Positions 1 through 21,032 of a DNA stretch of 64,000 nt are shown piece by piece (positions within the stretch are counted from its first letter, which is position 1; every line of letters starts with the position of its first letter). Made by a program: the position numbers and the translations under genes. The notes under the pieces are model-generated. The model worked only from the letters and a program-made list of their open reading frames with translations. It was not told where the DNA came from and ran no database searches. The stretch is from assembly GCA_015065845.1 (NCBI GenBank), contig SVPQ01000007.1:3805-67804 (forward strand). The letters run 5' to 3'. Source of the DNA: Oscillospiraceae bacterium (GTDB taxonomy: Bacteria; Bacillota; Clostridia; Oscillospirales; Acutalibacteraceae).

Positions 1-251
1 TTTCTGTAAATGAAAAGACAAGAAAAACCAACCATATCGTCAGTTACCTTGATAGAATAACTGTTTATGGAAGAATATTGAAAGACGATATCTCAATAGT
101 TGATTATCTTGAAGTATTTACTTTGGCTCAAATAACAGAATTTATAAATTTAGCGTCAGAAAATAATTGCACTAATGTGGTTGCTGCGTTACTTAATTAC
201 AAAAAAGAGCAATATTCTGATTTTGACCCAATGGCAGAGTTTGTATTATAA
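1..251 (+). CDS. 3-prime end of a CDS truncated by the window edge; helical module related to the central spacer of the downstream LRR paralogs
   Basis: Frame 3 is open from base 3 to TAA at 249-251 (...LASENNCTNVVAALLNYKKEQYSDFDPMAEFVL*). It resembles the AFLLDYKNKNY helix block of the LRR genes. The next gene starts 12 nt downstream. Confidence 0.5.
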   Translation, partial: SVNEKTRKTNHIVSYLDRITVYGRILKDDISIVDYLEVFTLAQITEFINLASENNCTNVVAALLNYKKEQYSDFDPMAEFVL

Positions 252-263
252 GGAGAATAAAAA

Positions 264-1766
264 ATGAGCGATGTTAAAGATTTTGTAATTGAAAATGGAG
301 TGCTGAAAAAATACATAGGTATTGATGCAGAAGTTGTTATCCCAGAGGGTGTAACGAGTATTGGTATTTGGGCTTTTGAAGGTTGTGTAAACCTCACAAC
401 AATCACTATCCCCGATAGTGTGACAAGTATTGATGATAATGCTTTTAGAGACTGCACAAACCTTACAGCAATCGCTATTCCAGATAGCGTTTTAAAAATT
501 GGTTGGTGGGCTTTTTATGGTTGTAATAGTCTTACAACTATAAATATCCCAAATAGTGTAACAAGTATTAGCAAACAGGTTTTTTGTGGTTGTAGTAAAC
601 TTACAACTATCACTATTCCTAAAAGTGTAACAAGTATTGGCAATTTGGCTTTTGAGAATTGCACAGGACTTACAACAATAGATATCCCAGAAAGTGTAAC
701 AAGTATTGGCAATTTGGCTTTTGAAAATTGCACAGGACTTACAACAATAGATATCCCAGAAGGTGTAACGAGTATTGGTGATAAGGCTTTCAGTGGTTGT
801 AGTAATCTTGCCACTATCATTGTTCCCAAATCTGTAAAAAAAGTCAGCACTGGGTGTTTTTCTGAAAAAACAAAAGTGTTTTTAGAATCTCCTACAATGT
901 TAGAAAATACTATCCTACAAAATCATCCTATTCTAGCAATAGTTGCACCACATATTAAGTTAACTGATTACAAAGATAGTATCCACAAATTTTCATTGAC
1001 GCTGGGCTATTTAGTTTCCCCGGATTTGTATTCAGACCAGGAGATTGCATCTGAATACAAAAAATATGCAAAAAAAGAGTTTGTAAAAATAATTGATTTT
1101 GTTGTAAAAAATGATTTACCTGAAGCAATTGAAACTTACATAACACTTGGTAAAATTACTTCTGCGAATGCAGAAAGTTATATTTTAAGCCTTGCAGAAC
1201 AGAACAATGCAACGGAATGTATAAATCACTTGAAAACTTGGATTTCAAGTAATTCACAATCTGAAAATAGCGAAGATTCTACAACAGAAAGTAAAATGCT
1301 TTCTGTAGCAGAAGTTAAAAAAATGTTTGGTTATTATGAAAAAGAAGATAGTACACTTTGCATTTATTCATATAAGTTACCATTAAGAGTTGTGGATTTC
1401 CCATCAATTATTGGTAAAAAAATAGTTTCTGAAATTGGTTGCAGTAAAAGTGGTAAAAATTTTGACTGGGGAAAAACAAAGATAAAAAGCGTAATGATTC
1501 CAGACAGTGTAACAAGTATAGGTAATTATGCATTCTGGTTGTGTAAAAACCTCACTACAATCACAATACCAGACAGTGTGACAAGTATTGGTGATTATGC
1601 TTTCGGATGTTGCGAAAATCTTACAACAATTACCATCCCAAACGGTGTTACGAGTATTGGTGATGAAGCTTTTTACAATTGCGAAAAACTAACTATTCAC
1701 GCCCCTAAGGGTAGTTATGCTGAGCAGTATGCAAAAGAAAATAAAATAAACTTTGTGGCAGAATAA
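264..1766 (+). CDS. BspA-type leucine-rich repeat (LRR_5-like) protein, paralog 1, no signal peptide
   Basis: AAGGAG RBS. N-cap [17 protein letters not shown]. About 23-aa repeats IPxSVTSIGxxAFxxCxxLTxI, then a non-repeat helical middle and a second LRR block. C-cap HAPKGSYAEQYAKENKINFVAE. Confidence 0.9.
   Translation: MSDVKDFVIENGVLKKYIGIDAEVVIPEGVTSIGIWAFEGCVNLTTITIPDSVTSIDDNAFRDCTNLTAIAIPDSVLKIGWWAFYGCNSLTTINIPNSVTSISKQVFCGCSKLTTITIPKSVTSIGNLAFENCTGLTTIDIPESVTSIGNLAFENCTGLTTIDIPEGVTSIGDKAFSGCSNLATIIVPKSVKKVSTGCFSEKTKVFLESPTMLENTILQNHPILAIVAPHIKLTDYKDSIHKFSLTLGYLVSPDLYSDQEIASEYKKYAKKEFVKIIDFVVKNDLPEAIETYITLGKITSANAESYILSLAEQNNATECINHLKTWISSNSQSENSEDSTTESKMLSVAEVKKMFGYYEKEDSTLCIYSYKLPLRVVDFPSIIGKKIVSEIGCSKSGKNFDWGKTKIKSVMIPDSVTSIGNYAFWLCKNLTTITIPDSVTSIGDYAFGCCENLTTITIPNGVTSIGDEAFYNCEKLTIHAPKGSYAEQYAKENKINFVAE
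624..761 (+). repeat. 69-bp tandem duplication (2 units, 1 mismatch) inside LRR paralog 1
   Basis: Units 624-692 and 693-761 both encode SVTSIGNLAFENCTGLTTIDIPE. They differ only at gagaattgc versus gaaaattgc. Confidence 0.9.
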
Positions 1767-1778
1767 AGGAGTATTATT

Positions 1779-3827
1779 ATGAGTGATATTAAGGATTTTG
1801 TAATTGAAGATGGTGTGCTTGAAGAGTACACAGGTAACGATGCAGAGGTTGTCATTCCAGAGGGTGTAACAAGCATAGGTGATAGTGCGTTTTCTGGATG
1901 TACAAACCTTACCGCAATTACCATCCCAGACAGTGTAACAAGCATAGGTAATTATGCGTTTGGAGAATGTACAAACCTTACCACAATCACAATACCAGAC
2001 AGTGTGACAAGTATAGGTGGAAATGCGTTCTGGGGTTGTAAAGGGCTTGCAGATAAAAAAGGTTTTGTAATTATAAACGGAACTTTATATTATTACTGCG
2101 GTTTCGAAAAAAATGTGGTTATACCTGAGGGTGTAACAAGTATAGGTGGTGCATTTGAGTATTGTGAAAATATTGAATCAATCACAATTCCTAACAGTGT
2201 GACAAGTATAGGTGATAGTGCGTTTAAATATTGTACAAATCTCACTACAATCACCATCCCAGAAAGTGTGACAAGTATAGGTCATGGTGCATTTTCTGGA
2301 TGTACAAACCTCACCGCAATTACCATCCCGGACAGTGTAACAAGCATAGATGCTTGGGCGTTTTCTGGATGTGAAAAACTCACCACAATCACAATACCAG
2401 ACAGTGTTACAAGCATAGATGCTTGGGCGTTTGGAGAATGTACAAACCTCACCACAATCACAATACCAGACAGTGTGACAAGTATAGGTGATAAAGTGCT
2501 TGGTGGTTGTAATAAATTGAACGTTATTAATCTTCCACAAAATATAACATCATTTAAAGGCTCTTCGCTTGAAGTAATATGGGATGCTTTATCAAAAACA
2601 GAATCGAAAGAAGTTGTTTTAAAATCATTTATCACTCAGTTACCGATTGATGTACTTAATGATGCAGATTTAAGCAAAAAAATAAAAGCAAATAAAAAAC
2701 TAATTATTGATTGTATAATAAAAAATGACGAAGCAGACGCTTTAGAAAAATTTTTCAGCTTATATAAAACAATTAAGCTTGATGAGCTTAATGAATACAT
2801 AGAAAAAGCGGAAGATTCAGTAAGTGTTTTAGCATTCCTTTTAGATTATAAAAATAAAAATTATACAATCGAAAAACAAGAAAAACACGAAAATGATAAG
2901 CTTGATAAAGAACTTGGGCTTAAAGAACTTACGCTTGCTGAATGGAAAAAGATTTACACATTTGATGTGAATGGTGATGAAGCAACTGTTACAGGATACA
3001 AAGGATTAGATTTAAATGTAATTATTCCTTCAAATATTGATAAGTATAAAGTTGTAGCAATTGCAGACTATGCTTTTAGTACAGAGGCAAGAGGTGTAAG
3101 AAAAGACATAAAAGAAATAAGAAGAAAAATAGAGTCTATTGTTATACCGGAAAGTGTAGTACGTATAGGTAATTATGCGTTTTCTGGATGTGAAAACCTC
3201 ACTACAATTACCATCCCAGACAGCGTGAGAAAAATAGGTGAATATTCGTTTTCTAAATGTACGAACCTCACCTCAATCACCATCCCAGACAGTGTAACAA
3301 GTATAGGTGCTTGGGCGTTTTATAAATGTACAAACCTCACCACAATTACAATACCAGACAGTGTGACAAGCATAGGTAATTATGCGTTTTATAAATGTAC
3401 AAACCTCACCACAATTACAATACCTAACAGTGTTACAAGCATAGGTAATTATGCGTTTGAAGAATGTACAAACCTCACCTCAATCACCATCCCAGACAGT
3501 GTAACAAGTATAGGTGGTGGCGCATTTTCTGGATGTAAAAACCTCACTACAATCACAATCTCAGACAGTGTGACAAGTATAGGTTTTAGAGCATTTTATG
3601 GTTGTAGAATTCTTGCATCTATTACAATTCCTGACGGTGTTACAAGTATAGGTGCTGGGGCGTTTTCTGGATGTGCAAACCTCACTACAATCACAATCCC
3701 AGACAGTGTTACGAGTATTGGTGAGGGTACTTTTTACAATTGCGAAAAACTAACTATCCACGCACCTAAGGGTAGTTATGCTGAGCAGTATGCAAAAGAA
3801 AATGAAATAAATTTCATAGCAGAATAA
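1779..3827 (+). CDS. BspA-type LRR protein, paralog 2 (LRR block, about 230-aa helical spacer, LRR block)
   Basis: Conserved junction taaaggagtattattATGagtgatatt. Caps MSDIKDFVIEDGVLEEY and HAPKGSYAEQYAKENEINFIAE. More than 15 repeats of 23 aa. No signal peptide. Confidence 0.9.
   Translation: MSDIKDFVIEDGVLEEYTGNDAEVVIPEGVTSIGDSAFSGCTNLTAITIPDSVTSIGNYAFGECTNLTTITIPDSVTSIGGNAFWGCKGLADKKGFVIINGTLYYYCGFEKNVVIPEGVTSIGGAFEYCENIESITIPNSVTSIGDSAFKYCTNLTTITIPESVTSIGHGAFSGCTNLTAITIPDSVTSIDAWAFSGCEKLTTITIPDSVTSIDAWAFGECTNLTTITIPDSVTSIGDKVLGGCNKLNVINLPQNITSFKGSSLEVIWDALSKTESKEVVLKSFITQLPIDVLNDADLSKKIKANKKLIIDCIIKNDEADALEKFFSLYKTIKLDELNEYIEKAEDSVSVLAFLLDYKNKNYTIEKQEKHENDKLDKELGLKELTLAEWKKIYTFDVNGDEATVTGYKGLDLNVIIPSNIDKYKVVAIADYAFSTEARGVRKDIKEIRRKIESIVIPESVVRIGNYAFSGCENLTTITIPDSVRKIGEYSFSKCTNLTSITIPDSVTSIGAWAFYKCTNLTTITIPDSVTSIGNYAFYKCTNLTTITIPNSVTSIGNYAFEECTNLTSITIPDSVTSIGGGAFSGCKNLTTITISDSVTSIGFRAFYGCRILASITIPDGVTSIGAGAFSGCANLTTITIPDSVTSIGEGTFYNCEKLTIHAPKGSYAEQYAKENEINFIAE
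2496..3190 (+). repeat. About 700-bp spacer module, copy 1 of 3 (near-identical copies in paralogs 2, 5 and 7)
   Basis: Runs from gtgcttggtggttgtaataaattgaa to gtagtacgtataggtaattatgcgttttctggatgt. It aligns by eye, with long identical runs, to 9244-9948 and 14044-14739. Confidence 0.85.
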
Positions 3828-3839
3828 AGGCGTATTATT

Positions 3840-4115
3840 ATGAGTGATATTAAATATTTTGTAATTGAAAATGGTGTGCTTAAAAAGTACAAAGGTAACG
3901 ATGCAGAAGTTGTTATTCCAGAGGGTGTAACAAGTATAGGTTATGGTGCGTTTTATAGTTGTGAAAACCTCACCACAATCACAATCCCAGACAGTGTGAC
4001 AAGTATAGGTGAAAGTGCGTTTTCTTATTGTAAAAACCTCACCATCCACGCCCATGCAGGAAGCTACGCAGAAAAATATGCAAAGAAAAATAAAATAAAA
4101 TTTGTGGCAGAATAA
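3840..4115 (+). CDS. Minimal BspA-type LRR protein (N-cap, about two repeats, C-cap; 91 aa)
   Basis: Same junction/RBS and the same caps ([17 protein letters not shown] ... [22 protein letters not shown]). Lies 20 nt upstream of the vWA gene. Confidence 0.8.
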
Positions 4116-4135
4116 AAAGAAAGAAATTTTAATTT

Positions 4136-5581
4136 ATGGATAATGAAAAATACGAAAAACTTAATAAGTTAGCAAAAGATGTACTTAATCTTTCAAGAAA
4201 TACGCTTCTTGTGAATTTAAGGTTTCTCGATATGGCTTTAAGTAGATTTCAGTACTTTAATTGTTCGGAGTCAACCTATTTTACAAACGGTGAATTTTTG
4301 TTGTATAACCCTGAGCATGTTTTAAAAAGCTACAAGCAGGAAAAAGAAGCTCCGGCAAGAGATTTTTTGCATATTGTTATGCATTGTATTTTTAGACACA
4401 TGTTTATGAATCCTAAACTTAACAGACCGTTGTGGGATTTAGCGTGTGATGTAGCTGTTGAAAACGTTATAAATGACCTTTGTTTAAAACAGGTAGATAC
4501 TGCGAGAGCGATAATACAACAGAAAGAAATTGCGAAGATTAAAGCTAATGTTAAAATTCTCACAGCCGAAAAAATATATAATTATCTTGTTGATAATTTA
4601 AGCGAGAGAGAAGCGGCAGAGCTTCGCGGATGCTTTTATGCCGATAACCACGAGGTGTGGTATATGACCGAAAGCGAAATTGCCGAAAAGTACAACCTCG
4701 TAGCAGTTGCGGATGGCAGCAAGCCTGATAACCCGCAAAGAGATAATAAAAGTGCAAGCGGTAGCGGTAACAAAGATGGCGACGAGCAGAGCAACAATGG
4801 TGATAGTGAAAACGATGGTCAGTCTGGTAATGGCAGTAGTAAAAGAAATGAGCTTAACCAGATGTGGCAAGAAATTTCTGAAAGAATGCAGACAGACCTT
4901 GAAACCTTCTCGAAAGAACAAGGCGACAAAGCCGGTGGTCTTGTGCAGAATCTTAAGGCGGTAAATCGTGAGAAATATGACTACACCGCATTTTTAAAGA
5001 AATTTGCAGTTTTAGGCGAAACAATGAAGGTAAATGACGATGAATTTGATTACATCTTTTACACCTATGGCTTGAAACTGTACGACAAAATGCCACTTGT
5101 TGAACCGCTTGAGTATAAAGAAGTAAAAAGAATTAAAGAATTTGTTATTGCTATTGATACATCCGGTTCTGTGCAAGGTGATTTAGTACAGAGCTTTGTG
5201 CAGAAAACCTATAATGTTTTGAAAAGTACAGAAAGTTTTTTCAGCAAAATAAATTTACATATTATTCAATGTGATGCCGATATTCAGGAGCATGTAAAAA
5301 TTACAACGCAAGAAGAATTTGATGATTACTTGAAAAATATGTCAATAAAAGGTCTTGGTGGAACAGATTTCAGACCTGTATTTAATACAGTCAATAAACT
5401 CATTATGGAAAAAGAGTTTACAAACCTTAAAGGGCTTATTTACTTTACTGACGGATATGGCGAGTTTCCGAAACAAAAACCTGACTACGATACTGCATTT
5501 GTTTTTATTGATGATGAGTACAACAATCCGGACGTACCACCATGGGCAATAAAATTAGTTTTACAGAAGGATGAGATATAA
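4136..5581 (+). CDS. vWA-domain protein with an N-terminal degenerate metallopeptidase-like domain (DUF2201_N/DUF2201-like architecture)
   Basis: C-terminal MIDAS-like motifs IAIDTSGSV (DxSxS), GGTDF and YFTDGYG. N-terminal FLHIVMHCIFRH looks like HExxH with the Glu lost. An acidic/Ser/Gly/Asn-rich linker (SGSGNKDGDEQSNNGDSENDGQSGNGSS) joins the two halves. Confidence 0.8.
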   Translation: MDNEKYEKLNKLAKDVLNLSRNTLLVNLRFLDMALSRFQYFNCSESTYFTNGEFLLYNPEHVLKSYKQEKEAPARDFLHIVMHCIFRHMFMNPKLNRPLWDLACDVAVENVINDLCLKQVDTARAIIQQKEIAKIKANVKILTAEKIYNYLVDNLSEREAAELRGCFYADNHEVWYMTESEIAEKYNLVAVADGSKPDNPQRDNKSASGSGNKDGDEQSNNGDSENDGQSGNGSSKRNELNQMWQEISERMQTDLETFSKEQGDKAGGLVQNLKAVNREKYDYTAFLKKFAVLGETMKVNDDEFDYIFYTYGLKLYDKMPLVEPLEYKEVKRIKEFVIAIDTSGSVQGDLVQSFVQKTYNVLKSTESFFSKINLHIIQCDADIQEHVKITTQEEFDDYLKNMSIKGLGGTDFRPVFNTVNKLIMEKEFTNLKGLIYFTDGYGEFPKQKPDYDTAFVFIDDEYNNPDVPPWAIKLVLQKDEI

Positions 5582-5587
5582 ATTACT

Positions 5588-6676
5588 GTGAGCGATAAAG
5601 ATTTAGTAATTATAAATAATAAGGTTATGTGCTACAGGGGAAATGATGAAAATATCGTTGTCCCGCAGGGTGTAACCTGTATTAGTGAAGATGCGTTTTA
5701 TAACTGTGTAAGTATTAAATCAATTACTTTGCCTGAAACTGTTACAGAAATTAAAGTTCTCGCCTTTTGTGGTTGTAAAAATCTTAAAGGAATAAATCTT
5801 CCAGATAAAATTACAACAATAAATTACAGTACCTTTAATGCTTGCTACAGTTTAGAAAAAGTAGTGCTTCCATACGATTTAAGGTTGATATGTTTAAATG
5901 CATTTTGTGATTGTAAAAAATTAAAACATATAATTTTACCGGAAAATATTACAAGTTTTAAATTCAGTTCATTAAAAGTGATATGGGACTATTTCACCGG
6001 AACAGAACATGCAGTAGCAATTAAATGTTCATTTCTGAAGCAGTATTTCCATTTTGTAAAAGAAGAAACAGAATTAAAAAGAAAAATTAAAGTGAGCAAG
6101 AAAAATATAGTAAAATTTGCTATTGAACTTGATGATGCGGAAATTGTAAAAAACTTGTTTTCACTTTATAAAAAAATCCAATTAGATGAGTTGGATGCTT
6201 TTTTAAGTGAAGCGGAAAATTCAGTTTCTGTTCGTGCATTTCTTCTGGAATACAAGAATTCAAAATATTCTGTTGCAGAGCAAGAGGGTTTCTGGAACCT
6301 TGAAGCAGAAAAATCGTTGGGGTTAAAAGAAAGATGTATTTCGGATTGGAAAAAGATTTTTGGCTTTTATGTGAAAGACGGAACTGCTATAATAACTAAA
6401 TATAAGTCATTGGAAAGTGTAGTAGAAGTTCCTGAAAAAATTGGTAAATATGTAGTTACCGGAATTTCAGAAAAGGCTTTTTCGGCTTATGCACCACGAC
6501 TTACGGATAAAGAAAAAATAAGCAGAAAAAAATTAGAACACATTACATTGCCGGTAACTATAAATAAAATAGCAGAAGATGCATTTTTCGGATGTACACT
6601 ACTCACTTTTCATAGTGAAGGAAATGATTATATAGAGCAATACGCAAAGAAACATAATATTCCAATAGAAAAATAA
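5588..6676 (+). CDS. Divergent LRR protein with the same overall layout (LRR, helical spacer, short LRR), GTG start
   Basis: GTG at 5588, 6 nt after the vWA stop. SDKDLVIINNKVMCYRGNDENIVVPQGVTCISEDAFYNC parallels the paralog N-cap. The spacer motif VSVRAFLLEYKNSKYS and the tail YIEQYAKKHNIPIEK are diverged versions of the family motifs. Confidence 0.8.
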   Translation: MSDKDLVIINNKVMCYRGNDENIVVPQGVTCISEDAFYNCVSIKSITLPETVTEIKVLAFCGCKNLKGINLPDKITTINYSTFNACYSLEKVVLPYDLRLICLNAFCDCKKLKHIILPENITSFKFSSLKVIWDYFTGTEHAVAIKCSFLKQYFHFVKEETELKRKIKVSKKNIVKFAIELDDAEIVKNLFSLYKKIQLDELDAFLSEAENSVSVRAFLLEYKNSKYSVAEQEGFWNLEAEKSLGLKERCISDWKKIFGFYVKDGTAIITKYKSLESVVEVPEKIGKYVVTGISEKAFSAYAPRLTDKEKISRKKLEHITLPVTINKIAEDAFFGCTLLTFHSEGNDYIEQYAKKHNIPIEK

Positions 6677-6693
6677 ATTTCAGGGGGTTAACC

Positions 6694-8205
6694 ATGAACA
6701 TCAAAGAAGCTAAAATTGAAATACAGAATGCTATGAAGGCATATTTTACAAAGGACCAATTCGGTAATTACGTTATACCGATTGAACGCCAACGCCCCGT
6801 TTTCTTAATGGGTGCACCCGGTATCGGTAAAACTGCAATTATGGAGCAGGTAGCTGCAGAGCTTGGTGTAAGCCTTGTTTCTTACTCAATGACGCACCAC
6901 ACAAGACAGTCTGCTATAGGCCTTCCGTTTATTGAAAGAAAAAATTACGGCGGCAAAGAGTATGACGTTTCAGAATATACAATGTCAGAAATTATTGCGT
7001 CTGTGTACGATATGATTGAAAAAACAGGTAAAAAAGAGGGTATTCTTTTTCTTGATGAGGTTAACTGTGTTTCTGAAACTCTTGCACCTGCAATGCTTCA
7101 GTTTTTGCAATATAAAGTATTCGGCAGACACAGAGTGCCTGATGGCTGGATTGTTGTTACTGCGGGTAACCCACCTGAATATAACAACTCAGTCCGTGAA
7201 TTCGACATTGTTACATGGGACAGACTCAAGAGAATTGATGTTGACCCTGATTTTGATGCGTGGAAGGAATATGCCTACAAAAAAGGTGTTCATGCTTCAA
7301 TAATTACTTATCTTGATATTAAAAAAGGTGATTTCTATAAAATAGAAACCACTGTTGACGGCAAAAGCTTTGTTACTGCCCGTGGTTGGTCAGATTTATC
7401 AGATATGATTCACCTTTATGAGCAGAATGATATTAAGGTAACAGAAAAATTTGTTGCACAATATATTCAAAATAAAAAAATAGCTAAAAGCTTTGCTACA
7501 TATTACGATTTATTTAATAAATATAAATCTGATTATCAAATTGACACAATTCTTAATGGTAAAGCAGGCGACGGAATTAAAATGCGTGCTAAAAACGCTA
7601 AATTTGATGAGCGTTTTAGTTTACTTGGACTTTTACTTGATGCGGTAACTGCAGAGCTTCGCACAGTTTGTGGTAGAGAGCTTTCATTGACGGAGCTACT
7701 TAATGCATTAAAGATGGTTAAAGTTGAACTTGTAAAGCCTACAGCAGATGCAACTTCTGTTATTGAAAAACAAATTGAGAAATATGAAAAAGATATTTCT
7801 GTCGGCAAAGCTGCTTCAAGCCTTTCTGTTGAAGATGAGCTTAAATTACGCTCTACAATTTCAGTGTTAGAAGAAATTATTGGCGTAATTAAAGAAAAAG
7901 AACCTCAGGACAATACAAAAGCATTCATTTTAATTAAAGAGTGCTTCGACAAACAAAGAGATGAACTTAAAAAAGGTGCTGATTCTTCAAGTAAAAAACT
8001 CTCAAATGTGTTTAAATTCTGCGAAGAAGTCTTTGGCGAGGGTCAGGAAATTCTCATTCTCGTAACAGAGCTTACTATAAGCTACTATGGTGCTCATTTT
8101 ATAAGCCGTTATGGGTGTAAAGAATATTTCGACCATAACAAAGAGCTTCTTTTCTACGAAAGACAAAAAGAGATTATAACAGAACTTGAAAACTTAGAGT
8201 TATAA
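6694..8205 (+). CDS. MoxR-like AAA+ ATPase (AAA_5-type) with a C-terminal helical extension
   Basis: Walker A GAPGIGKT, Walker B ILFLDEVN, sensor-1-like VVTAGNPPEYN. GGGGG RBS. Sits 17 nt after the preceding LRR gene. Confidence 0.85.
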   Translation: MNIKEAKIEIQNAMKAYFTKDQFGNYVIPIERQRPVFLMGAPGIGKTAIMEQVAAELGVSLVSYSMTHHTRQSAIGLPFIERKNYGGKEYDVSEYTMSEIIASVYDMIEKTGKKEGILFLDEVNCVSETLAPAMLQFLQYKVFGRHRVPDGWIVVTAGNPPEYNNSVREFDIVTWDRLKRIDVDPDFDAWKEYAYKKGVHASIITYLDIKKGDFYKIETTVDGKSFVTARGWSDLSDMIHLYEQNDIKVTEKFVAQYIQNKKIAKSFATYYDLFNKYKSDYQIDTILNGKAGDGIKMRAKNAKFDERFSLLGLLLDAVTAELRTVCGRELSLTELLNALKMVKVELVKPTADATSVIEKQIEKYEKDISVGKAASSLSVEDELKLRSTISVLEEIIGVIKEKEPQDNTKAFILIKECFDKQRDELKKGADSSSKKLSNVFKFCEEVFGEGQEILILVTELTISYYGAHFISRYGCKEYFDHNKELLFYERQKEIITELENLEL

Positions 8206-8226
8206 AATATTAAAAGGAGTATTATA

Positions 8227-10446
8227 ATGAGTGATATTAAAGATTTTGTAATTGAAGATGGTGTGTTGAAAAAATATAAAGGTAAAGAAACAGAGATTGT
8301 CATTCCAGACAGTGTAACAAGTATAGGTAGTGGTGTGTTTAGTGAATGTATAAACCTCACTACAATCACAATACCAGACAGTGTAACAAGCATAGGTGCT
8401 TGGGCGTTTAAATATTGTACAAATCTCACTACAATCACAATCCCAGACAGTGTGACAAGTATAGGTGTGGATGCTTTTAAATATTGTGAAAATCTTACAA
8501 CAATTACCATCCTAGACAGTGTGACAAGTATAGGTGGTGGTGCATTTTATGGATGTAGCAGCCTCACCGCAATTACAATACCGGATAATGTGACAAGTAT
8601 AGGTAAAAATGCTTTTTTTAGCACATCTTACTATAAGAATAAATCAAATTGGGAAAATGGTGTCTTACACATAGGTAACCATTTAATAAAAGCAAAAAAG
8701 AATATTTCAGGTACATATACAATAAGAAATGGTACAAAAACTATTGCTGACAATGCTTTTGAAGCTTGCGAATCTCTCACAGGCATTACAATACCAGACA
8801 GTGTTACAAGCATAGGTGCTTGGGCGTTTGAAGAATGTACAAACCTTACCACAATCACAATACCAGAAAGTGTTACAAGTATAGGTGTGGATGCTTTTAA
8901 ATATTGTGAAAATCTTACAACAATTACCATCCCAGACAGTGTGACAAGTATAGGTGGAAATGCTTTTTTTAGCACATCTTACTATAATAATAAATCAAAT
9001 TGGGAAAAAGGTGTCTTACACATAGGTAACCATTTAATAAAAGCAAAAAAGAATATTCCAGGTACATATACAATAAGAAATGGTACAAAAACTATTGCTG
9101 ACAATGCGTTTGGAGAATGTACAAACCTCACCACAATCACAATACCAGACAGTGTTACAAGCATAGGTGCTTGGGCGTTCGGAGAATGTACAAACCTCAC
9201 TACAATCACCATCCCAGACAGTGTGACAAGTATAGGTGATTATGTGCTTGGTGGTTGTAATAAATTGAACGTTATTAATCTTCCACAAAATATAACATCA
9301 TTTAAAGGCTCTTTGCTTGAAAGAATATGGGATGCTTTATCAAAAACAGAATCGAAAGAAGTTGTTTTAAAATCATTTATCACTCAGTTGTCGATTGAAA
9401 TGCTCAAAGATGCGGATTTGAGTAGAAAAATAAAAACAAACAAAAAGTTGATAATTGATAATATAATAAAAAATGATGATGCAGAAGCATTAGCCAAACT
9501 TTTAAACTTGTATAAAACAATTAAGATAGATGAACTTAACGAATATATTGAAAATGCGAAAGATTCAGTAAGTGTTTTAGCATTCCTTTTAGATTATAAA
9601 AATAAAAATTATACAATCGAAAAACAAGAAAAACACGAAAATGATAAGCTTGATAAAGAACTTGGGCTTAAAGAGAGAACACTTGCCGAATGGAAGAAAA
9701 TTTATTCATTTGATGTAATTGATGTAAATGGTGCCAAAGCAACTATTACAGGATATAAAGGCGTAGATTTAAATGTAATTATTCCTTCAAATATTGATAA
9801 GTATAAAGTTATAGCAATTGCAGACTATGCTTTTAGTACAGAGGCAAAAGGTGTAAGAAAAGACATAAAAGAAATAAGAAGAAAAATAGAGTCTATTGTT
9901 ATACCGGAAAGTGTAGTACGTATAGGTAATTATGCGTTTTCTGGATGTGCAAACCTCACTACAATTACCATCCCAGACAGCGTGAGAAAAATAGGTGGAT
10001 ATTCGTTTTCTGGATGTAAAAACCTCACCGCAATCACAATACCTGACGGTGTGAGAAGTATAGGTGATAGGGCGTTTGAAGAATGTACAAACCTTACCAC
10101 AATCACAATACCGGACGGTGTTACAAGTATAGGTGAATATTCGTTTTCTGGATGTGAAAATCTCACCACAATCACAATCCCAGAAAGTGTTACAAGTATA
10201 GGTGAACATGCGTTTTATAGTTGTACAAACCTCACCGCAATCACAATACCCGAAGGAGTAACAAGTATAGGTGAAGAAGCATTCCGTTGGTGTGAAAAAC
10301 TCACTACAATCACAATACCAGATAGTATAACAAGTATAGGTTATAGGGCGTTTTCTTATTGTAAAAACCTCACTATCCACGCCCATACAGGAAGCTACGC
10401 AGAAAAATATGCAAAGAAAAATAAAATAAACTTTGTGGCAGAATAA
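8227..10446 (+). CDS. BspA-type LRR protein, paralog 5 (739 aa) with an internal 351-bp-offset duplication
   Basis: Conserved junction and caps. The FFSTSYYxNKSNWExGVLHIGNHLIKAKKNI.GTYTIRNGTKTIADNAF insert occurs twice. The shared 700-bp spacer module is present. Confidence 0.9.
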   Translation: MSDIKDFVIEDGVLKKYKGKETEIVIPDSVTSIGSGVFSECINLTTITIPDSVTSIGAWAFKYCTNLTTITIPDSVTSIGVDAFKYCENLTTITILDSVTSIGGGAFYGCSSLTAITIPDNVTSIGKNAFFSTSYYKNKSNWENGVLHIGNHLIKAKKNISGTYTIRNGTKTIADNAFEACESLTGITIPDSVTSIGAWAFEECTNLTTITIPESVTSIGVDAFKYCENLTTITIPDSVTSIGGNAFFSTSYYNNKSNWEKGVLHIGNHLIKAKKNIPGTYTIRNGTKTIADNAFGECTNLTTITIPDSVTSIGAWAFGECTNLTTITIPDSVTSIGDYVLGGCNKLNVINLPQNITSFKGSLLERIWDALSKTESKEVVLKSFITQLSIEMLKDADLSRKIKTNKKLIIDNIIKNDDAEALAKLLNLYKTIKIDELNEYIENAKDSVSVLAFLLDYKNKNYTIEKQEKHENDKLDKELGLKERTLAEWKKIYSFDVIDVNGAKATITGYKGVDLNVIIPSNIDKYKVIAIADYAFSTEAKGVRKDIKEIRRKIESIVIPESVVRIGNYAFSGCANLTTITIPDSVRKIGGYSFSGCKNLTAITIPDGVRSIGDRAFEECTNLTTITIPDGVTSIGEYSFSGCENLTTITIPESVTSIGEHAFYSCTNLTAITIPEGVTSIGEEAFRWCEKLTTITIPDSITSIGYRAFSYCKNLTIHAHTGSYAEKYAKKNKINFVAE
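8608..9107 (+). repeat. Internal direct duplication in paralog 5 (8608-8756 versus 8959-9107)
   Basis: The two roughly 150-bp segments are near-identical by eye, at an offset of 351 bp. Confidence 0.85.
9244..9948 (+). repeat. About 700-bp spacer module, copy 2 of 3
   Basis: Aligns with 2496-3190 and 14044-14739. Carries a 9-nt insertion (attgatgta). Confidence 0.85.
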
Positions 10447-10539
10447 AGAGGATTATTTTGTGATATTGAGTGGAAATTTGATTAGATTTTAATTGTTATT
10501 AAATGATAATGAAGTTTTTAGGATTGAGGTTTTAGTCGA

Positions 10540-11175
10540 ATGAACGAAAGAAAAATATGTCCTGTTATCGACAATATGGACAAGCGTTATACATATGCAC
10601 AGCATAAGGGCAGGTACAGTCAAGCGATGAAATATGAGTTTTATTTCGAAGCGTTGATGATTGATTATGCTCTTATGGAAGACAGATTGAAATCGTTTTT
10701 GTATCATGCAGGTGTATTAAATTCAAGAACATCCCATAAAATTGATTGCAGTAAACCTAATAAGGCTTTGTTAAAACAAATTTATTGTAAGTATCGAAAT
10801 AAAACTGATGTCAATTTACCGAAGATTCAGAATATAAGCGGTAAGATTGATATTATAAGAGCTGTCCTTGAATGGGTAAGTAATACAGAACAAAATCCTA
10901 ATGATAGCCGATATCTTAGAACTTTAAAAAATCAATGTGAGTCTGTTGATATTGGCGATATGTTGAATACTTTGAAAATGATTGAAGATTGGTGTAAGTA
11001 TCGCAATGAGGTTGTTCATGCATTGATGAATAAAAATATTGATTCCCTGAGGAGTGTACTTTGTGATAAGGCAATCGAAGGGATGGAACTTGCCAATCGA
11101 CTTGATACCTATGTTCGTGATATGAAAAAGGGTAATAAGGTTCGTAAATCTGCAAATATGTGTATTGAAAAATAA
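10540..11175 (+). CDS. Small HEPN-like protein (Rx4H motif)
   Basis: KYRNEVVHAL (R at 11002-11004, H at 11017-11019) lies in the C-terminal third of an all-helical-looking 211-aa protein. No other recognisable domain. Confidence 0.6.
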   Translation: MNERKICPVIDNMDKRYTYAQHKGRYSQAMKYEFYFEALMIDYALMEDRLKSFLYHAGVLNSRTSHKIDCSKPNKALLKQIYCKYRNKTDVNLPKIQNISGKIDIIRAVLEWVSNTEQNPNDSRYLRTLKNQCESVDIGDMLNTLKMIEDWCKYRNEVVHALMNKNIDSLRSVLCDKAIEGMELANRLDTYVRDMKKGNKVRKSANMCIEK

Positions 11176-11200
11176 AAGATAAGACTTAAGGTGATAAGAA

Positions 11201-12277
11201 TTGCGCTATATAATCAACGATAAAAAATATCATTTTAAATCAGCTTTTGATACTGAAACAGGTGCTTATGTCCGTACCGGTATTCTCGATGAAAATGGTA
11301 ATGATACAGGTGTTGATCCGTTTATGGCTTCATATCCTCATTTAATAGATGTTGGCATTATGGGACACTGTATTCACGGTAAAACCGGACTTTGTGCAAA
11401 AGCAGGTATCGGATGTTATCAAAGCGGTATGTTAGTAGAACAACCCAATATGTCGGTTGAAGACTTCAGGTGGATTGCAGAACAATCCAAAGGCAAATGC
11501 AATCAATTTGCTCTCGGTGGCAGAGGCGACCCCGACCAGCACGAGCATTTTGAAGAAATACTTAAAATCTGTCGAGAAAATGTGCTTGTGCCTAATTTCA
11601 CTACATCAGGTTACGGTATGACCCCCGAAATAGCAAAGCTTTGCAAACAGTATTGTGGTGCTGTTGCAGTAAGCTGGTATAGAAGCGAATATACGTTAAG
11701 AGCAATTCAAATGTTGCTTGATGCAGGGGTAAAAACCAATATACATTATGTGCTTGGCAAAAACAGTATTGATGAAGCGATTGAAAGACTGCAAAATAAT
11801 GATTTTCCAAAAGGAATCAACGCAGTAATCTTTTTGCTACACAAGCCGGCTGGTCAAGGCACCAAAGCAAATATGCTTGAAGCGAACGACCCAAGAGTTG
11901 CAAAATTTTTTGCCGAGGTGGATAAACAGCATCCATTTAAAGTTGGTATGGATAGCTGTAACGTGCCTGGCGCTATCAATTTCTGCAAATCTATCTTACC
12001 AGAATCTCTTGATACTTGTGAAGGTGGCAGATATAGTTGTTATATCGGTGCCGATATGATTATGGTGCCTTGCAGTTTTGACCAAGAAAAGCGATATGAA
12101 GTTTCTCTTCGTGATATGTCTATCACCGAAGCGTGGAATAGCGAACCTTTTGAGCGTTTTCGTAACAAAATGCGTGGTGCTTGTCCGAATTGCGAAAAGA
12201 AAGAACTTTGCATGGGCGGTTGCCCACTAATGCCTGAAATCGTTTTCTGTGAAAGCATAAAAAGAAAAATAATATAA
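11201..12277 (+). CDS. SPASM-domain radical-SAM-like enzyme with a non-canonical N-terminal Cys triad
   Basis: TTG start with AAGGTGA RBS. C-terminal CPNCEKKELCMGGC is CX2CX5CX3C (12182-12223), preceded by CEGGRYSCYIGADMIMVPC, which fits the SPASM pattern. LGGRGDP is GGEP-like. The N-terminal cluster site reads HCIHGKTGLCAKAGIGC (CX7CX6C) instead of CX3CX2C. Confidence 0.7.
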   Translation: MRYIINDKKYHFKSAFDTETGAYVRTGILDENGNDTGVDPFMASYPHLIDVGIMGHCIHGKTGLCAKAGIGCYQSGMLVEQPNMSVEDFRWIAEQSKGKCNQFALGGRGDPDQHEHFEEILKICRENVLVPNFTTSGYGMTPEIAKLCKQYCGAVAVSWYRSEYTLRAIQMLLDAGVKTNIHYVLGKNSIDEAIERLQNNDFPKGINAVIFLLHKPAGQGTKANMLEANDPRVAKFFAEVDKQHPFKVGMDSCNVPGAINFCKSILPESLDTCEGGRYSCYIGADMIMVPCSFDQEKRYEVSLRDMSITEAWNSEPFERFRNKMRGACPNCEKKELCMGGCPLMPEIVFCESIKRKII

Positions 12278-12295
12278 ACCAAGGGAGTAAATAAC

Positions 12296-13447
12296 ATGAA
12301 AATTAGAACTGATTTTGTGACCAATTCAAGTAGCTCAAGTTTTACGCTTATGATTAAATTTGATTTGGTTAATGGTAAAAGTGTTGAGTTTTATGCTCAA
12401 GGAGGCTCAGGTGAAACCGGTAGAATTGACTATTTTGATGCTGAAGCTATAGTTAATGTAAGCCCTAAACAATTGGGTAACGCTAAAAATGTTGATGAAC
12501 TTATTCAATTGCTCGAAGAAGGTGTTGTTGACGGAGAGGATGAAACAAAAATTTTTGATGAATCTCGCCCCGTAGAAAGTGAGGTGGGTGCAGGTGTATT
12601 TGATGCCTACGATTTTGTTATTGAAATTCGTGAGAAGATTAAATCAATGGAAGATATAGAATCTATAACAATTACAGGTAATGAAGAAAATTATGAGAGT
12701 TATAAACGTAGTTACACATATAACCTAAAAACAAAAGAATATACAGGTACTGAAGACGGATATTTACTACTTGAGGTTGATGGTTCTAACGGTGGTGATT
12801 TATGCTTCGATGATTTGCAGTCATGTGTTGTGCAAGCTGATTTATCCGTGGAAGATGATGAGTATTGGGAAAAGGATTTTTCGGACCTCACCACAATCAG
12901 AATCCCAGACAGTGTGACAAGTATAGGTGATTGGGAGTTTGATGGATGTGAAAACCTCACCACAATCACAATCCCCGACAGTGTAACAAGTATAGGTGAG
13001 GGTGCATTTTATGGATGTATCAGCCTCACCGCAATCACAATACCAGACAGTGTAACGAGTATTGGTGCTGAGGCTTTTGCATATTGCGAAAACCTTACAA
13101 CAATAAATATCCCCGACAGTGTAACAAGTATAGGTGAAAGTGCGTTTTCTTTTTGTGTAAACCTCACCACAATCACAATCCCGGACAGTGTGACAAGTAT
13201 AGGGGAAAGCGCGTTCGAATATTGCTCAAGCCTTACATCAATCAATATTCCTGAGAGTGTAACAAGTATAGGTGAAAGTGCGTTTAAATATTGTACAAAA
13301 CTCACCACAATCACAATCCCCGACAGTGTAACAAGCATAGGTGCTTGGGCGTTTGATGGATGTAAAAACCTCACCATCCACGCACCTAAGGGTAGTTATG
13401 CTGAACAGTATGCAAAAGAAAATAAAATAAAATTCATAGCAGAATAA
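12296..13447 (+). CDS. Chimeric protein: unique about 195-aa N-terminal domain (MKIRTDFVTNSSSSSF...) fused to seven BspA-type LRRs and the family C-cap
   Basis: GGGAG RBS. The N-terminal domain resembles nothing else in the window. From [15 protein letters not shown] onward it is a typical paralog, ending HAPKGSYAEQYAKENKIKFIAE. Confidence 0.85.
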   Translation: MKIRTDFVTNSSSSSFTLMIKFDLVNGKSVEFYAQGGSGETGRIDYFDAEAIVNVSPKQLGNAKNVDELIQLLEEGVVDGEDETKIFDESRPVESEVGAGVFDAYDFVIEIREKIKSMEDIESITITGNEENYESYKRSYTYNLKTKEYTGTEDGYLLLEVDGSNGGDLCFDDLQSCVVQADLSVEDDEYWEKDFSDLTTIRIPDSVTSIGDWEFDGCENLTTITIPDSVTSIGEGAFYGCISLTAITIPDSVTSIGAEAFAYCENLTTINIPDSVTSIGESAFSFCVNLTTITIPDSVTSIGESAFEYCSSLTSINIPESVTSIGESAFKYCTKLTTITIPDSVTSIGAWAFDGCKNLTIHAPKGSYAEQYAKENKIKFIAE

Positions 13448-13458
13448 GGAGTGTTATT

Positions 13459-15177
13459 ATGAGTGATATCAGAGATTTTGTAATTGAAAATGGAGTGTTG
13501 AAAAAATATACAGGTAATGAAAAAGAGGTTGTCATTCCAGAGGGCGTAACAAGCATAGGTGAAAATGCGTTCTGGTGGTGTAAAAACCTCACTACAATCA
13601 CAATACCTGACAGTGTAACAAGCATAGGTGCTTGGGCGTTTAAATATTGTACAAATCTCACTACAATCACAATACCAGACAGTGTTACAAGTATAGGTTA
13701 TGGTGCGTTTTCTGAATGTGAAAACCTCACCGCAATTACAACAATCCCGGACAGTGTGACAAGTATAGGTGGAAATGCGTTCTGGGGTTGTAAAGGGCTT
13801 GCAGATAAAAAAGGTTTTGTAATTATAAACGGAACTTTATATTATTACTGCGGTTTCGAAAAAAATGTGGTTATACCTGAGGGTGTAACAAGTATAGGTG
13901 ATAGTGCATTTGAAAATTGTTCATCTCTTACCACAATTACAATACCAGATAGTGTGACAAGTATAGGCGACAGTGCGTTTTCTTATTGTAAAAACCTCAC
14001 TACAATCACAATCCCTGACAGTGTGAAAAGTATGGGTAAAGATGTGCTTGGTGGTTGTAATAAATTGAATGTTATTAATCTTCCACAAAATATAACATCG
14101 TTTAAAGGTTCTTCTCTTGAAATAATATGGGATGCTTTATCAAAAACAGAATCGAAAGAAGTTGTTTTAAAATCATTTATCACTCAGTTACCGATTGATG
14201 TACTTAATGATGCAGATTTAAGCAAAAAAATAAAAGCAAATAAAAAACTAATTATTGATTGTATAATGAAAAATGACGAAGCAGAAGCTTTAGAAAAATT
14301 TTTCAGCTTATATAAAACAATTAAGTTTGATGAGATTAATGAATACATAGAAAAAGCAAAAGATTCTGTAAATGTTTCAGCGTTTCTTTTGGATTATAAA
14401 AATAAGAATTACACAGTTGAAAAACAAGAAAAGCACGAAAATGATAAGCTTGATAAAGAACTTGGGCTTAAAGAGAGAACACTTGCCGAATGGAAGAAAA
14501 TTTATTTATTTGATGTAAATGGTGACGAAGCAACTATTACAGGATACAAAGGATTAGATTTAAATGTAATTATTCCTTCAAGTATTGCGAAGTATAAAGT
14601 TGTAGCAATTGCTGACAACGCTTTTATTCCTGAAGCGACTGGTTTAAGAAAAGACATAAAAGAAATAAGAAGAAAAATAGAGTCTATTGTTATACCGGAA
14701 AGTGTAGTACGTATAGGTAATTATGCGTTTTCTGGATGTAAAAACCTCACTACAATCACAATCCCAGACAGCGTGACAAGTATAGGTAAAATGGCGTTTT
14801 ATGGTTGTAGTGGCCTCACCGCAATTGCAATCCCAGACAGCGTGACAAGTATAGGTAAAATGGCGTTTTATGGTTGTAGTGGCCTCACCGCAATTGCAAT
14901 CCCTGACAGTGTAACAAGTATAGGTGAGAGTGCATTTGAGGGTTGTCAAAACCTCACCGCAATCACAATACCAGACAGTGTGACAAGTATAGGTGAAAGT
15001 GCGTTTTCTTGGTGTAAAAACCTTACTACAATCACAATTCCTGACAGTGTTACGAGTATTGGTAAGGATGCTTTTTACAATTGCGAAAAACTAACTATCC
15101 ACGCCTATGCAGGAAGCTACGCAGAAAAATATGCAAAAGAAAATAAAATTCATAGCAGAATAAAGGAGTATTGTTAA
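13459..15177 (+). CDS. BspA-type LRR protein, paralog 7, with a frameshifted C-terminal cap
   Basis: Conserved junction and N-cap. Shares a 150-bp identical block with paralog 2 (13751-13900 = 2000-2148). The tail reads YAKENKIHSRIKEYC* instead of YAKENKIKFIAE*. Confidence 0.85.
   Translation: MSDIRDFVIENGVLKKYTGNEKEVVIPEGVTSIGENAFWWCKNLTTITIPDSVTSIGAWAFKYCTNLTTITIPDSVTSIGYGAFSECENLTAITTIPDSVTSIGGNAFWGCKGLADKKGFVIINGTLYYYCGFEKNVVIPEGVTSIGDSAFENCSSLTTITIPDSVTSIGDSAFSYCKNLTTITIPDSVKSMGKDVLGGCNKLNVINLPQNITSFKGSSLEIIWDALSKTESKEVVLKSFITQLPIDVLNDADLSKKIKANKKLIIDCIMKNDEAEALEKFFSLYKTIKFDEINEYIEKAKDSVNVSAFLLDYKNKNYTVEKQEKHENDKLDKELGLKERTLAEWKKIYLFDVNGDEATITGYKGLDLNVIIPSSIAKYKVVAIADNAFIPEATGLRKDIKEIRRKIESIVIPESVVRIGNYAFSGCKNLTTITIPDSVTSIGKMAFYGCSGLTAIAIPDSVTSIGKMAFYGCSGLTAIAIPDSVTSIGESAFEGCQNLTAITIPDSVTSIGESAFSWCKNLTTITIPDSVTSIGKDAFYNCEKLTIHAYAGSYAEKYAKENKIHSRIKEYC
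14044..14739 (+). repeat. About 700-bp spacer module, copy 3 of 3
   Basis: Aligns with 2496-3190 and 9244-9948. Confidence 0.85.
14761..14898 (+). repeat. Exact 69-bp tandem duplication (2 units) inside paralog 7
   Basis: 14761-14829 and 14830-14898 are identical (atcccagacagcgtgacaagtataggtaaaatggcgttttatggttgtagtggcctcaccgcaattgca). Confidence 0.95.
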
Positions 15178-15448: not shown

Positions 15449-15481
15449 AAAAATCTCAAGTCTTGTGACTTGAGATTTTTT
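15449..15481 (-). terminator. Intrinsic terminator hairpin after the HIRAN gene (bidirectional-looking)
   Basis: aaaatctcaagtc-ttgt-gacttgagatttt, flanked by an A-run and a T-run. Confidence 0.7.
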
Positions 15482-15482
15482 A

Positions 15483-15971
15483 TTATCTTTTAAGTTCAAT
15501 AACAGTTTCTACAAAAAGCACCGCTTTTTTTGCGTGTCGGCTTCGCATTGAGATAGGCTCAACGAAGCTTACTGAAGCACTTTTAAACAATAAATGACCA
15601 TTATCATAAAGTGGGGCAATTGCGTTGCATAAATCTGCCGGTAAAGTACCTAAATTCTTATTCGATTCAGTAAATAACGAAAAATTATTTCGGTTGAAAG
15701 AATTTTCACCATCTCTTACAATATTGATTTTATCGTGGAGTTTTATAGATTCTATCTGCTCTGTTCTGCCCTCATAACGTGTGCCCATAGCTTCAAATTT
15801 TATTGTCATAGTGTCTGTGGCTTCATCATAACTTCCATAATACTGCTCAGGGTATTCCATAAAACCCGGTTCATAATAATCAGGACCTACAGTAAGGGAA
15901 TTCTCATATTTGTGATGAATTTTTTTTACTTCTTCAAGCAGATTGTTTATTAAAATATCATAATTATTCAT
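15483..15971 (-). CDS. HIRAN-domain protein
   Basis: GTRYEGRTEQIESIKLHDKINIVRDGENSFNRNNFSLF...LGTLPADLCNAIAPLYDNG fits the HIRAN pattern (Y-G..., NxxDxNA-like, lG.lp...a..lapl). The stop of the upstream gene lies 2 nt before its ATG. Confidence 0.65.
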   Translation of the reverse strand: MNNYDILINNLLEEVKKIHHKYENSLTVGPDYYEPGFMEYPEQYYGSYDEATDTMTIKFEAMGTRYEGRTEQIESIKLHDKINIVRDGENSFNRNNFSLFTESNKNLGTLPADLCNAIAPLYDNGHLLFKSASVSFVEPISMRSRHAKKAVLFVETVIELKR

Positions 15972-15973
15972 AA

Positions 15974-18913: not shown

Positions 18914-18924
18914 AATAAGTCATC

Positions 18925-20658: not shown

Positions 20659-20754
20659 AATAAAACCTGCTTTCAACAATTAATATACAAATTATAATGT
20701 ATTTAAGTCGAAAAAACAAGATTTTGTTTGTAAAATATAGAATTTACGTAAAAC

Positions 20755-20947: not shown

Positions 20948-21032
20948 TGGTGCGGGTGACAGGACTCGAACCTGCAAGGATCGCTCCAATGGGACCTAAA
21001 CCCATCGTGTTTGCCAGTTCCACCACACCCGC
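20948..21032 (-). tRNA. tRNA-Leu (anticodon TAG), type II with long variable arm, encoded CCA
   Basis: The reverse complement is GCGGGTG...ATGGG-TTTAGGT-CCCAT...GGTTCGAGTCC...CACCCGC-A-CCA. The cloverleaf folds by hand. Confidence 0.9.

Follow-up and report, generated by a model that had tools for sequence, protein, structure and literature searches.

A candidate three-component MoxR–vWA system of gut and rumen Clostridia with a glutamate-less zincin-like head and variable dock-bearing repeat proteins

Described MoxR–vWA systems and the present locus

In MoxR–von Willebrand factor A (vWA) ternary conflict systems, a MoxR ATPase and a vWA protein are combined with a system-specific third component that carries recognition modules; VMAP, iSTAND/iSTAND2, FtsH, beta-propeller, and TERNS3 systems have been described (Kaur et al., 2020, PMC7159879; Kaur et al., 2021, PMC8195603). 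Here, we analyzed a 64,000-nucleotide (nt) stretch of contig SVPQ01000007.1 from an Oscillospiraceae bacterium (hereinafter referred to as the window), in which genes for a vWA protein with a zincin-like head, a leucine-rich repeat (LRR) protein, and a MoxR-class AAA+ ATPase stand side by side among LRR paralogs. By analogy, the locus is best read as an undescribed MoxR–vWA ternary variant, the overall logic of which parallels that of the systems in PMC7159879 and PMC8195603.

In addition to the MoxR and vWA pair with its third component, the locus resembles the described systems in that many of them have an inactive peptidase domain fused to the vWA protein, and diversification is a common theme. 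In contrast, the third component here consists of LRR_5, ankyrin (Ank), or DUF4132 proteins carrying a shared element (hereinafter referred to as the dock element), and falls outside all of those families. The vWA protein here is of the DUF2201 type with an N-terminal zincin-like head. Further, the described systems fuse C-terminal effectors to the vWA protein and are enriched in multicellular actinobacteria and cyanobacteria, whereas the present locus has no such fusion and no conserved effector, and belongs to unicellular gut Clostridia. No description of the system was found in literature on DUF2201, DUF4132, COG3864/PF13203/PF09967, or MoxR with BspA and LRR.

CbbQ–CbbO, NorQ–NorD, and RavA–ViaA each consist of an AAA_5 ring and an adaptor bearing a metal ion-dependent adhesion site (MIDAS), which engages a defined client. 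This client-specific chaperone pattern is the mechanistic model used here. Their clients are single conserved enzymes, whereas the candidate clients here form a multigene family of variable members, and an extra zincin-like head is present on the adaptor.

Canonical DUF2201 pairs, found on the Synechocystis plasmid pSYSA, on a Ralstonia plasmid, and in phage copies, share with the present locus both Pfam domains, the H..xH….H and W.xAxD motifs, and a MoxR family ATPase gene adjoining that of a 'VWA-like domain-containing protein'. They differ in keeping HExxH, in having an Asn at the position of E109 of the present clade, and in gene order, the ATPase gene preceding the vWA gene (directly in Synechocystis, and separated from it by a single unnamed gene in Ralstonia). 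No annotated LRR gene is present at the Synechocystis or Ralstonia locus, and the canonical ATPases, of about 340–355 amino acids (aa), are without the C-terminal extension of about 320 aa.

The E. coli cluster yehI(DUF4132)–yehL(AAA_5)–yehM–yehP(vWA)–yehQ, itself uncharacterised, also links a MoxR–vWA pair to a large DUF4132 protein, and DUF4132 is fused to some third components here. It was rejected as a homologous system; YehP belongs to VWA_CoxE rather than DUF2201 and has no peptidase-like head, YehI is without the dock element, and the cluster has DUF5682 and SWIM proteins absent here and no LRRs. Surface LRR proteins of the BspA type (PF13306) belong to the same repeat family, with very high scores. 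The LRR proteins here differ from them in having no signal peptide or anchor, being predicted cytoplasmic, carrying the dock element internally, and being tied genetically to the ATPase/adaptor pair.

Composition and conservation of the unit

The initial annotation centred on four genes, encoding a 91-aa mini-LRR, the vWA protein, a 362-aa LRR protein, and the ATPase (Table 1). Their coordinates and domains agreed with the list of open reading frames (ORFs) and with Pfam matches above curated cut-offs, including DUF2201_N (38.3 bits, cut-off 23.2) and DUF2201 (55.8 bits, cut-off 26.4) in the vWA protein, and AAA (34.7 bits, cut-off 21.2) and AAA_5 (32.7 bits, cut-off 22) in the ATPase. All four genes lie on the + strand, separated by gaps of 20, 6, and 17 nt. 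The GTG start of the 362-aa LRR gene (5588), placed by the annotation 6 nt after the vWA stop codon (TAA, 5579–5581), was backed by an MSD N-terminus, as in the paralogs, and by the junction being identical in a sister lineage.

A scan of a one-genome-per-species collection confirmed relatives in at least 580 stretches, and the locus counts given here rest on the best 80 species-level loci. These were labelled nearly all as Clostridia or other Bacillota, with one Anaerolineaceae, and were mostly from gut or rumen metagenome-assembled genomes. Clustering of their ORFs gave vWA (75), LRR/dock (61), and AAA (59) as the recurrent families, the next family reaching 9. Both vWA and AAA genes were found in 64 loci, on the same strand in 64/64 and with vWA upstream in 63; the order was reversed in L073. 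From 0 to 6 LRR_5 genes lay between the two, with short gaps or overlaps, and an LRR gene was present between the pair or within 500 bp of it in 52 of the 64 loci, L073 included. Within 3 kb of the pair, 40% of the non-core bases belonged to LRR genes, compared with 9.9% further out, and 113 of the 118 near-pair LRR genes were co-directional. The association of LRR genes with the vWA/AAA pair exceeds chance.

The ATPase was the most constrained component of the system, with 75–91% identity across loci, followed by the vWA protein (66–76%) and the LRR proteins (27–46%). Its Walker A (GAPGIGKT) and Walker B (ILFLDE) motifs are both intact, and its C-terminal extension had no family match. Thousands of relatives, named 'MoxR family ATPase', were found at 60–90% identity, and the vWA and ATPase families each comprised at least 8000 clusters at 90% identity. 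PDB sequence matches of the ATPase were solely midasin AAA modules. The bpMoxR family (PF20030) matched the window below threshold and was recorded for many ATPase homologues.

At the locus of the sister lineage (L095–L097), genes for the vWA protein, the 362-aa LRR protein, the AAA protein, and one 831-aa LRR protein were identified. Identity to the window was 78% for the vWA protein and 90% for both the 362-aa LRR protein and the ATPase, and the GTG junction was the same; the 831-aa protein was 33–37% identical to the window flanks, and the mini-LRR and the paralog expansion were absent at this locus. Because, of the four genes, the sister lineage keeps the vWA, 362-aa LRR, and AAA genes, the core consists of these three, with fully turned-over flanks, and sequence comparison supports them as the ancestral core. 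The initial annotation had proposed an old, constrained unit of four genes between recently expanded flanks, to be sought in other genomes. This stood for the vWA, 362-aa LRR, and AAA genes, which recur together in L095–L097, and not for the mini-LRR, which was seen only on contigs with a vWA protein identical to that of the window and was absent from other loci. The comparison thus supports a conserved unit of three genes, not four.

The four genes had likewise been held to differ from their flanks, the 362-aa LRR protein being strongly diverged. For the latter this was confirmed. Its head and tail were 57–68% identical to the window paralogs at the nt level, and its middle domain was 45–46% identical to them, while paralogs B, C, and E were mutually 87–92% identical. 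It had four close relatives (90, 89, 68, and 65% identity), the next reaching 41%, and it is constrained solely within its own lineage. A reading of this gene as a broadly conserved ortholog was rejected on these relatives and on the LRR proteins of other loci, which were no closer to it than its own paralogs. In contrast, the mini-LRR did not differ from the flanks; its first 120 nt were 88% identical to paralog B and its last 120 nt 93% identical to paralog C. As annotated, it is little more than two caps, with a single repeat between the N-cap and the C-cap. It is probably a head–tail recombination or deletion product of the flanking paralogs, outside the conserved core, and the best reading of the sequences is that this gene, like the big flanking paralogs, arose by lineage-specific recombination.

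A related arrangement was seen in a Joint Genome Institute contig (L002; 99.2–99.3% identical to the window over the compared stretches 1864–6982 and 10226–14037), where a block of the HEPN, radical-SAM, and 383-aa genes is joined directly to an E–B hybrid upstream of the mini-LRR. The join may be either paralog recombination or an assembly chimera across repeats. Paralog joints in Logan contigs and the L002 arrangement were not used as evidence, being possible repeat-induced artefacts.

The glutamate-less head and the dock element

The vWA protein consists of a zincin-like head (residues 1–186), a linker (192–231), a helical region, and a vWA domain (about 335–476) that ends the protein. In AlphaFold2 (AF2) models, the predicted local distance difference test score (pLDDT) was 81 for the full-length protein and 96.7 for the head alone. 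The linker had been described as long, acidic, and of low complexity; its disorder was borne out by the prediction (pLDDT <50), whereas a strongly acidic character was not, the composition being rich in Asn, Ser, Gly, and Asp and mildly acidic (9 D+E versus 4 K in 50 residues). Homologues were 449–505 aa in total length, with linkers of varying length. The MIDAS is intact, as claimed, comprising DTSGS, T410, and D439, and its columns were ≥90% conserved in 44 homologues.

In the head, Ile80 occupies the position of the catalytic Glu of HExxH. At least 8000 relatives of the vWA protein were found, thousands of them at 60–90% identity. The closest 120 (≥63% identity) all read H-[I/V/L/M]-x-x-H, with Glu in 0/120. 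A head-only, filter-free search gave 1326 representative clusters, the best 150 of which (35–55% identity) were inspected; Glu80 was present in 2 of about 146 head representatives (P0169 and P0173), the others having a hydrophobic or small residue there. The loss of the Glu had first been read from an alignment by eye. Since the canonical DUF2201 proteins of the Synechocystis and Ralstonia plasmids align HELLH and HEVLH, respectively, with HIVMH, that alignment was right, and the finding of homologues with a canonical HExxH at this position validates it rather than refuting it.

Residues H79, H83, H88, and D105 were invariant in sets of 44 and 57 sequences, D170, H172, and W175 were invariant in the clade, and E109 was ≥90% conserved. 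The canonical members have H88, W100, A103, and D105 in common with the clade and an Asn at the position of E109. D105 is probably a metal ligand. To judge from these alignments, the predicted metal ligands H79, H83, H88, and D105 are kept and the catalytic base is lost, and the loss is clade-wide rather than a local decay. Because the ligands are invariant, the site has been remodelled and has not simply decayed. A binding or adaptor role of the head, rather than proteolysis, is plausible from its sequence, as the initial annotation had suggested.

The predicted order of secondary structure in the head (beta-sheet, active-site helix, ligand helix) fits a zincin. The head model matched predicted structures of phage DUF2201-type 'metallopeptidases' with a template modelling score of 0.65 (E 4e-4). 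Against the PDB, the full-length model matched only at the vWA domain, to vWA folds, and a sequence search of the PDB with the vWA protein found nothing. Between the window and the sister locus L095 (8603–9994), the head was 78% identical and the C-terminal part (237–481) 90% identical; the peptidase-like head evolves faster than the C-terminal part between the sister lineages.

The element shared by the third components had been missed in the initial annotation. It is an ankyrin-like element of about 70 aa, in which …AFLLDYKN… is followed by an acidic stretch, and its motif (…LAFLLDYKNKNY) lies mid-protein in the window LRR proteins and at the end of the products of neighbouring genes in LRR-free loci. 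A hidden Markov model (HMM) iterated from the shared segment (72 positions, consensus …LLKFAIDNDDAEALQLLLEEGLITPKEIDELIEYASENGKTECTAFLLDYKNRTF…) matched 119 of the 146 neighbouring LRR ORFs. It was used instead of a strict YKN regular expression, which was too narrow (23 of 146 ORFs). The consensus resembles Ank_2 weakly (E 0.002, below threshold). In the window, the element was detected in paralogs A, B, C, and E, the 362-aa gene, and the truncated upstream gene (3–248); the HMM had no match in the mini-LRR or in the 383-aa protein D. It was also found in Ank-repeat, DUF4132, DUF6273, and BRCT-fused proteins beside the pair or elsewhere in the loci. It is the dock element, and not the LRR, that defines the third component. 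The mini-LRR, being without a dock, may be a by-product or, less probably, a decoy.

The truncated upstream gene was complete on the source contig and encodes an 852-aa LRR_5-DUF4132 protein with the dock element at its C-terminal end. In L001, which is 99.99% identical to the window, the corresponding gene (1497–4055) encodes LRR_5 and DUF4132, with the dock element at residues 782–846.

A total of 51 near-perfect repeats, each of 23 residues, occur in the flanking paralogs. Entropy was about 0–0.7 bit at scaffold positions and 2.7–3.3 bits at positions 12, 13, 16, 17, and 19, the pattern of an unchanging scaffold on which the ligand-contact residues vary. None of the LRR paralogs or other system proteins examined had a signal peptide, anchor, or membrane segment, and the maximum of 19-residue Kyte–Doolittle-type hydropathy (KD19) was ≤1.37 across the proteins. 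The LRR proteins are thus predicted to be cytoplasmic.

Gene neighbourhood and candidate roles

The + strand co-directional array of genes spans 264–15177 and is closed by a terminator-like hairpin (Table 1). Promoter scans of the window gave no more matches than expected by chance. RNA evidence consisted of a few short contigs from one run labelled metatranscriptome, in which DNA carry-over is possible. ORFs of 60–200 aa on the − strand inside the LRR genes (197–14949; e.g., 9787–10386) are by-products of the regular repeat, and no evidence was found for these antisense ORFs being genes.

Table 1. Features of the array in the window (positions in nt of the window; residue numbers refer to the vWA protein).
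Feature	Position	Strand	Evidence
Upstream gene, 3' end, cut by window start; dock at E 7e-15	3–248	+	Dock HMM
LRR_5 paralog A, 500 aa, flanking; diverged dock at about 1074–1241, weak (E 1.6e-7)	264–1766	+	Pfam, dock HMM
LRR_5 paralog B, 682 aa, flanking; order LRR, dock (2694–2864), LRR	1779–3827	+	LRR_5 499 bits; dock E 2.5e-20
Mini-LRR, 91 aa; N-cap, one repeat, C-cap; without dock	3840–4115	+	Pfam LRR_5; dock HMM no match
vWA protein (candidate adaptor), 481 aa	4136–5581	+	Pfam DUF2201_N and DUF2201; AF2 model
HIVMHCIFRH, residues 79–88, in place of HExxHxxxxH	4370–4399	+	Alignment
WDLACDVAVE, helix after active-site helix; holds D105 and E109	4433–4462	+	Alignment
DNHEVW; holds D170, H172, and W175	4643–4660	+	Clade-invariant residues
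MIDAS DxSxS = DTSGS (341–345); T410 at 5357–5371, D439 at 5444–5461	5156–5170	+	Motif columns
362-aa LRR, GTG start; degenerate short LRR_5 block, dock (6098–6268), short C-terminal LRR and cap	5588–6676	+	LRR_5 105 bits; dock E 3.5e-18
MoxR-class AAA+ ATPase, 503 aa; Walker A 6811–6834, Walker B 7042–7059	6694–8205	+	Pfam AAA, AAA_5; motifs
LRR_5 paralog C, 739 aa, flanking; dock 9442–9612	8227–10446	+	Pfam, dock HMM
HEPN-like protein, 211 aa, RNEVVH at 11002–11019; accessory	10540–11175	+	HEPN_RiboL-PSP 21.5 bits, below cut-off
Radical-SAM/SPASM protein, 358 aa; accessory	11201–12277	+	SPASM above cut-off, Radical_SAM below
LRR_5 protein D, 383 aa, acidic N-terminal region without family match; no dock	12296–13447	+	Pfam, dock HMM
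LRR_5 paralog E, 572 aa, flanking; dock 14242–14412	13459–15177	+	ORF list, dock HMM
Terminator-like bidirectional hairpin, 14 pairs; closes co-directional array	15449–15480		Hairpin scan

Among the window paralogs lie genes for a HEPN-like (RNEVVH) and a radical-SAM/SPASM protein. In L018, L020, L032, and L067, the AAA start is overlapped by the gene for a shorter HEPN homologue (about 157 aa, RNRLIH), and a radical-SAM homologue was located beside an LRR gene upstream of vWA in L016. In protein D, an N-terminal region of about 200 aa, very acidic, is fused to five LRR_5 repeats, the whole protein containing 67 D+E versus 25 K+R. Paralog E ends in …KENKIHSRIKEYC (15100–15177), where its relatives have …KENKINFVAE; a small frameshift or indel at its 3' end is likely.

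Convergent to the array, three genes on the − strand (15483–20679) encode a HIRAN protein (162 aa), a protein with alphaCTD and sigma-70 region 4 (979 aa), and a protein with a Swt1-like HEPN domain at its N-terminus (584 aa). Of these, the two large genes were again found next to the system in L020, L032, and L067, HIRAN being detected only in L067, and the alphaCTD/sigma region 4 gene also adjoins the locus in L010. The trio may be a separate conflict module. A tRNA-Leu gene (20948–21032) lies between the Swt1-like HEPN gene, which ends at 20679, and a type III glutamine synthetase gene starting at 21178, and the whole stretch from 1 to 20.7 kb may form a variable island adjoining the tRNA gene. 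In a strain of metagenome run X4, there was almost no depth at about 10.1–12.8 kb (none at 11.2–12.8 kb), while the core was present.

We propose, giving the proposal an even chance, that the ATPase, the Glu-less vWA adaptor, and the variable dock-bearing repeat proteins form a three-component MoxR–vWA machine of gut and rumen Clostridia. The adaptor would hold a dock-bearing protein either via its MIDAS, with coordination of an acidic residue, or within the head cleft; lacking its Glu, the head would then be a natural substrate trap. The ATPase ring would spend ATP to remodel, load, or release the dock-bearing protein, and the repeat proteins would serve as a variable ligand-binding output. 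Fast gain, loss, and recombination, together with the five variable repeat positions, suggest a diversifying intracellular recognition repertoire, which would most likely serve in conflict with phages or other invaders; the HEPN genes and the trio are hints of such a conflict role. We regard as doubtful the more specific proposal of a repertoire resembling nucleotide-binding LRR receptors (NLR) or variable lymphocyte receptors (VLR), in which hypervariable LRR, Ank, or DUF4132 binders would be docked on a trap-head adaptor and armed or reset by the MoxR ATPase, with paralog recombination yielding new specificities.

Several observations weigh against the three-component machine and its conflict role. 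An adjacent LRR gene was missing in 12 of the 64 two-gene loci, most of them on short contigs. HEPN genes were found in only 4 of the 64, no effector is conserved, and the sister locus lies among housekeeping genes rather than in a defence island. PADLOC had no model matching the vWA or LRR proteins and gave weak P-loop matches for the ATPase. The head model had no significant fold match in the PDB (best E about 1); 9 of the top 11 of these weak matches (E about 1) were zincins, small ones such as selecase, jannalysin, BlaR1, and PprI. With D170 and H172 invariant and E109 nearly so, some residual or altered catalysis is conceivable. Moreover, the strain-level rearrangements in metagenome contigs may be assembly artefacts.

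It is also possible, if unlikely, that the pair serves a housekeeping function, as a chaperone dedicated to the folding or assembly of LRR proteins of the BspA type, which would reach a structural or cell-envelope complex by a non-classical route, with LRR variability reflecting host or surface interaction and not immunity. RavA–ViaA, CbbQO, NorQD, and CoxDE are assembly or maturation factors (PMC7159879). The setting of the sister locus and the extreme conservation of the ATPase are in keeping with such a function. BspA-type LRR proteins are classically surface proteins, but no LRR paralog here has a signal peptide, anchor, or membrane segment, and no secretion genes recur across the 80 loci. 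A dedicated chaperone of this kind is also at odds with the finding that Ank, DUF4132, DUF6273, or BRCT proteins can stand in as third component and with LRR copy numbers that differ among species, from 0 to at least 6.

Still less probable is that the head is an enzyme, with catalysis moved to E109 or D170/H172 or with changed chemistry, and that dock-bearing proteins are cleaved or modified under control of the ATPase, for example to release the LRR module. All predicted metal ligands are invariant, D170, H172, and W175 are invariant specifically in the clade, and Asn has been replaced by Glu at position 109; such strong conservation of a site is unusual for a mere scaffold. ChlB oxygenase, a non-peptidase HExxH enzyme, was also among the weak fold matches. 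However, zincins rely on the Glu of HExxH as the general base, and activity is normally lost when it is replaced; at position 80, nearly every member has a hydrophobic or small residue. Because both Glu80-bearing members also have E109, the latter is not a substitute for Glu80. In thermolysin, Asp170 lies one turn after the ligand Glu166 and hydrogen-bonds His142. E109 lies one helical turn past the putative ligand D105, which would correspond to the second-shell place of Asp170, and the analogy favours a second-shell role of E109 over that of a relocated base.

Finally, LRR_5 genes are very common in the host genomes, also far from the pair, but it is highly improbable that they are abundant mobile repeats that landed by an unrelated MoxR–vWA pair without functional link, given their fourfold density near the pair with a strand bias of 113:5, their insertion between core genes with short gaps or overlaps, the dock element common to non-LRR neighbours, and the occurrence in the sister lineage of a 90% conserved LRR between vWA and AAA.

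Although the vWA and ATPase families are both very common, no paper on them was found, and the names given to them go no further than 'VWA-like domain-containing protein' and 'MoxR family ATPase'. A zincin head that is Glu-less and complete in its predicted ligands would offer a natural test case for the transition from peptidase to binding module, and the dock element provides a handle for pull-downs, complex prediction, and genome-wide cataloguing of the system. In gut Firmicutes, LRR proteins of the BspA type are generally regarded as surface adhesins. If a large subset of them is in fact cytoplasmic and tied to an ATPase/adaptor pair, the reading of these abundant genes in microbiomes would change.

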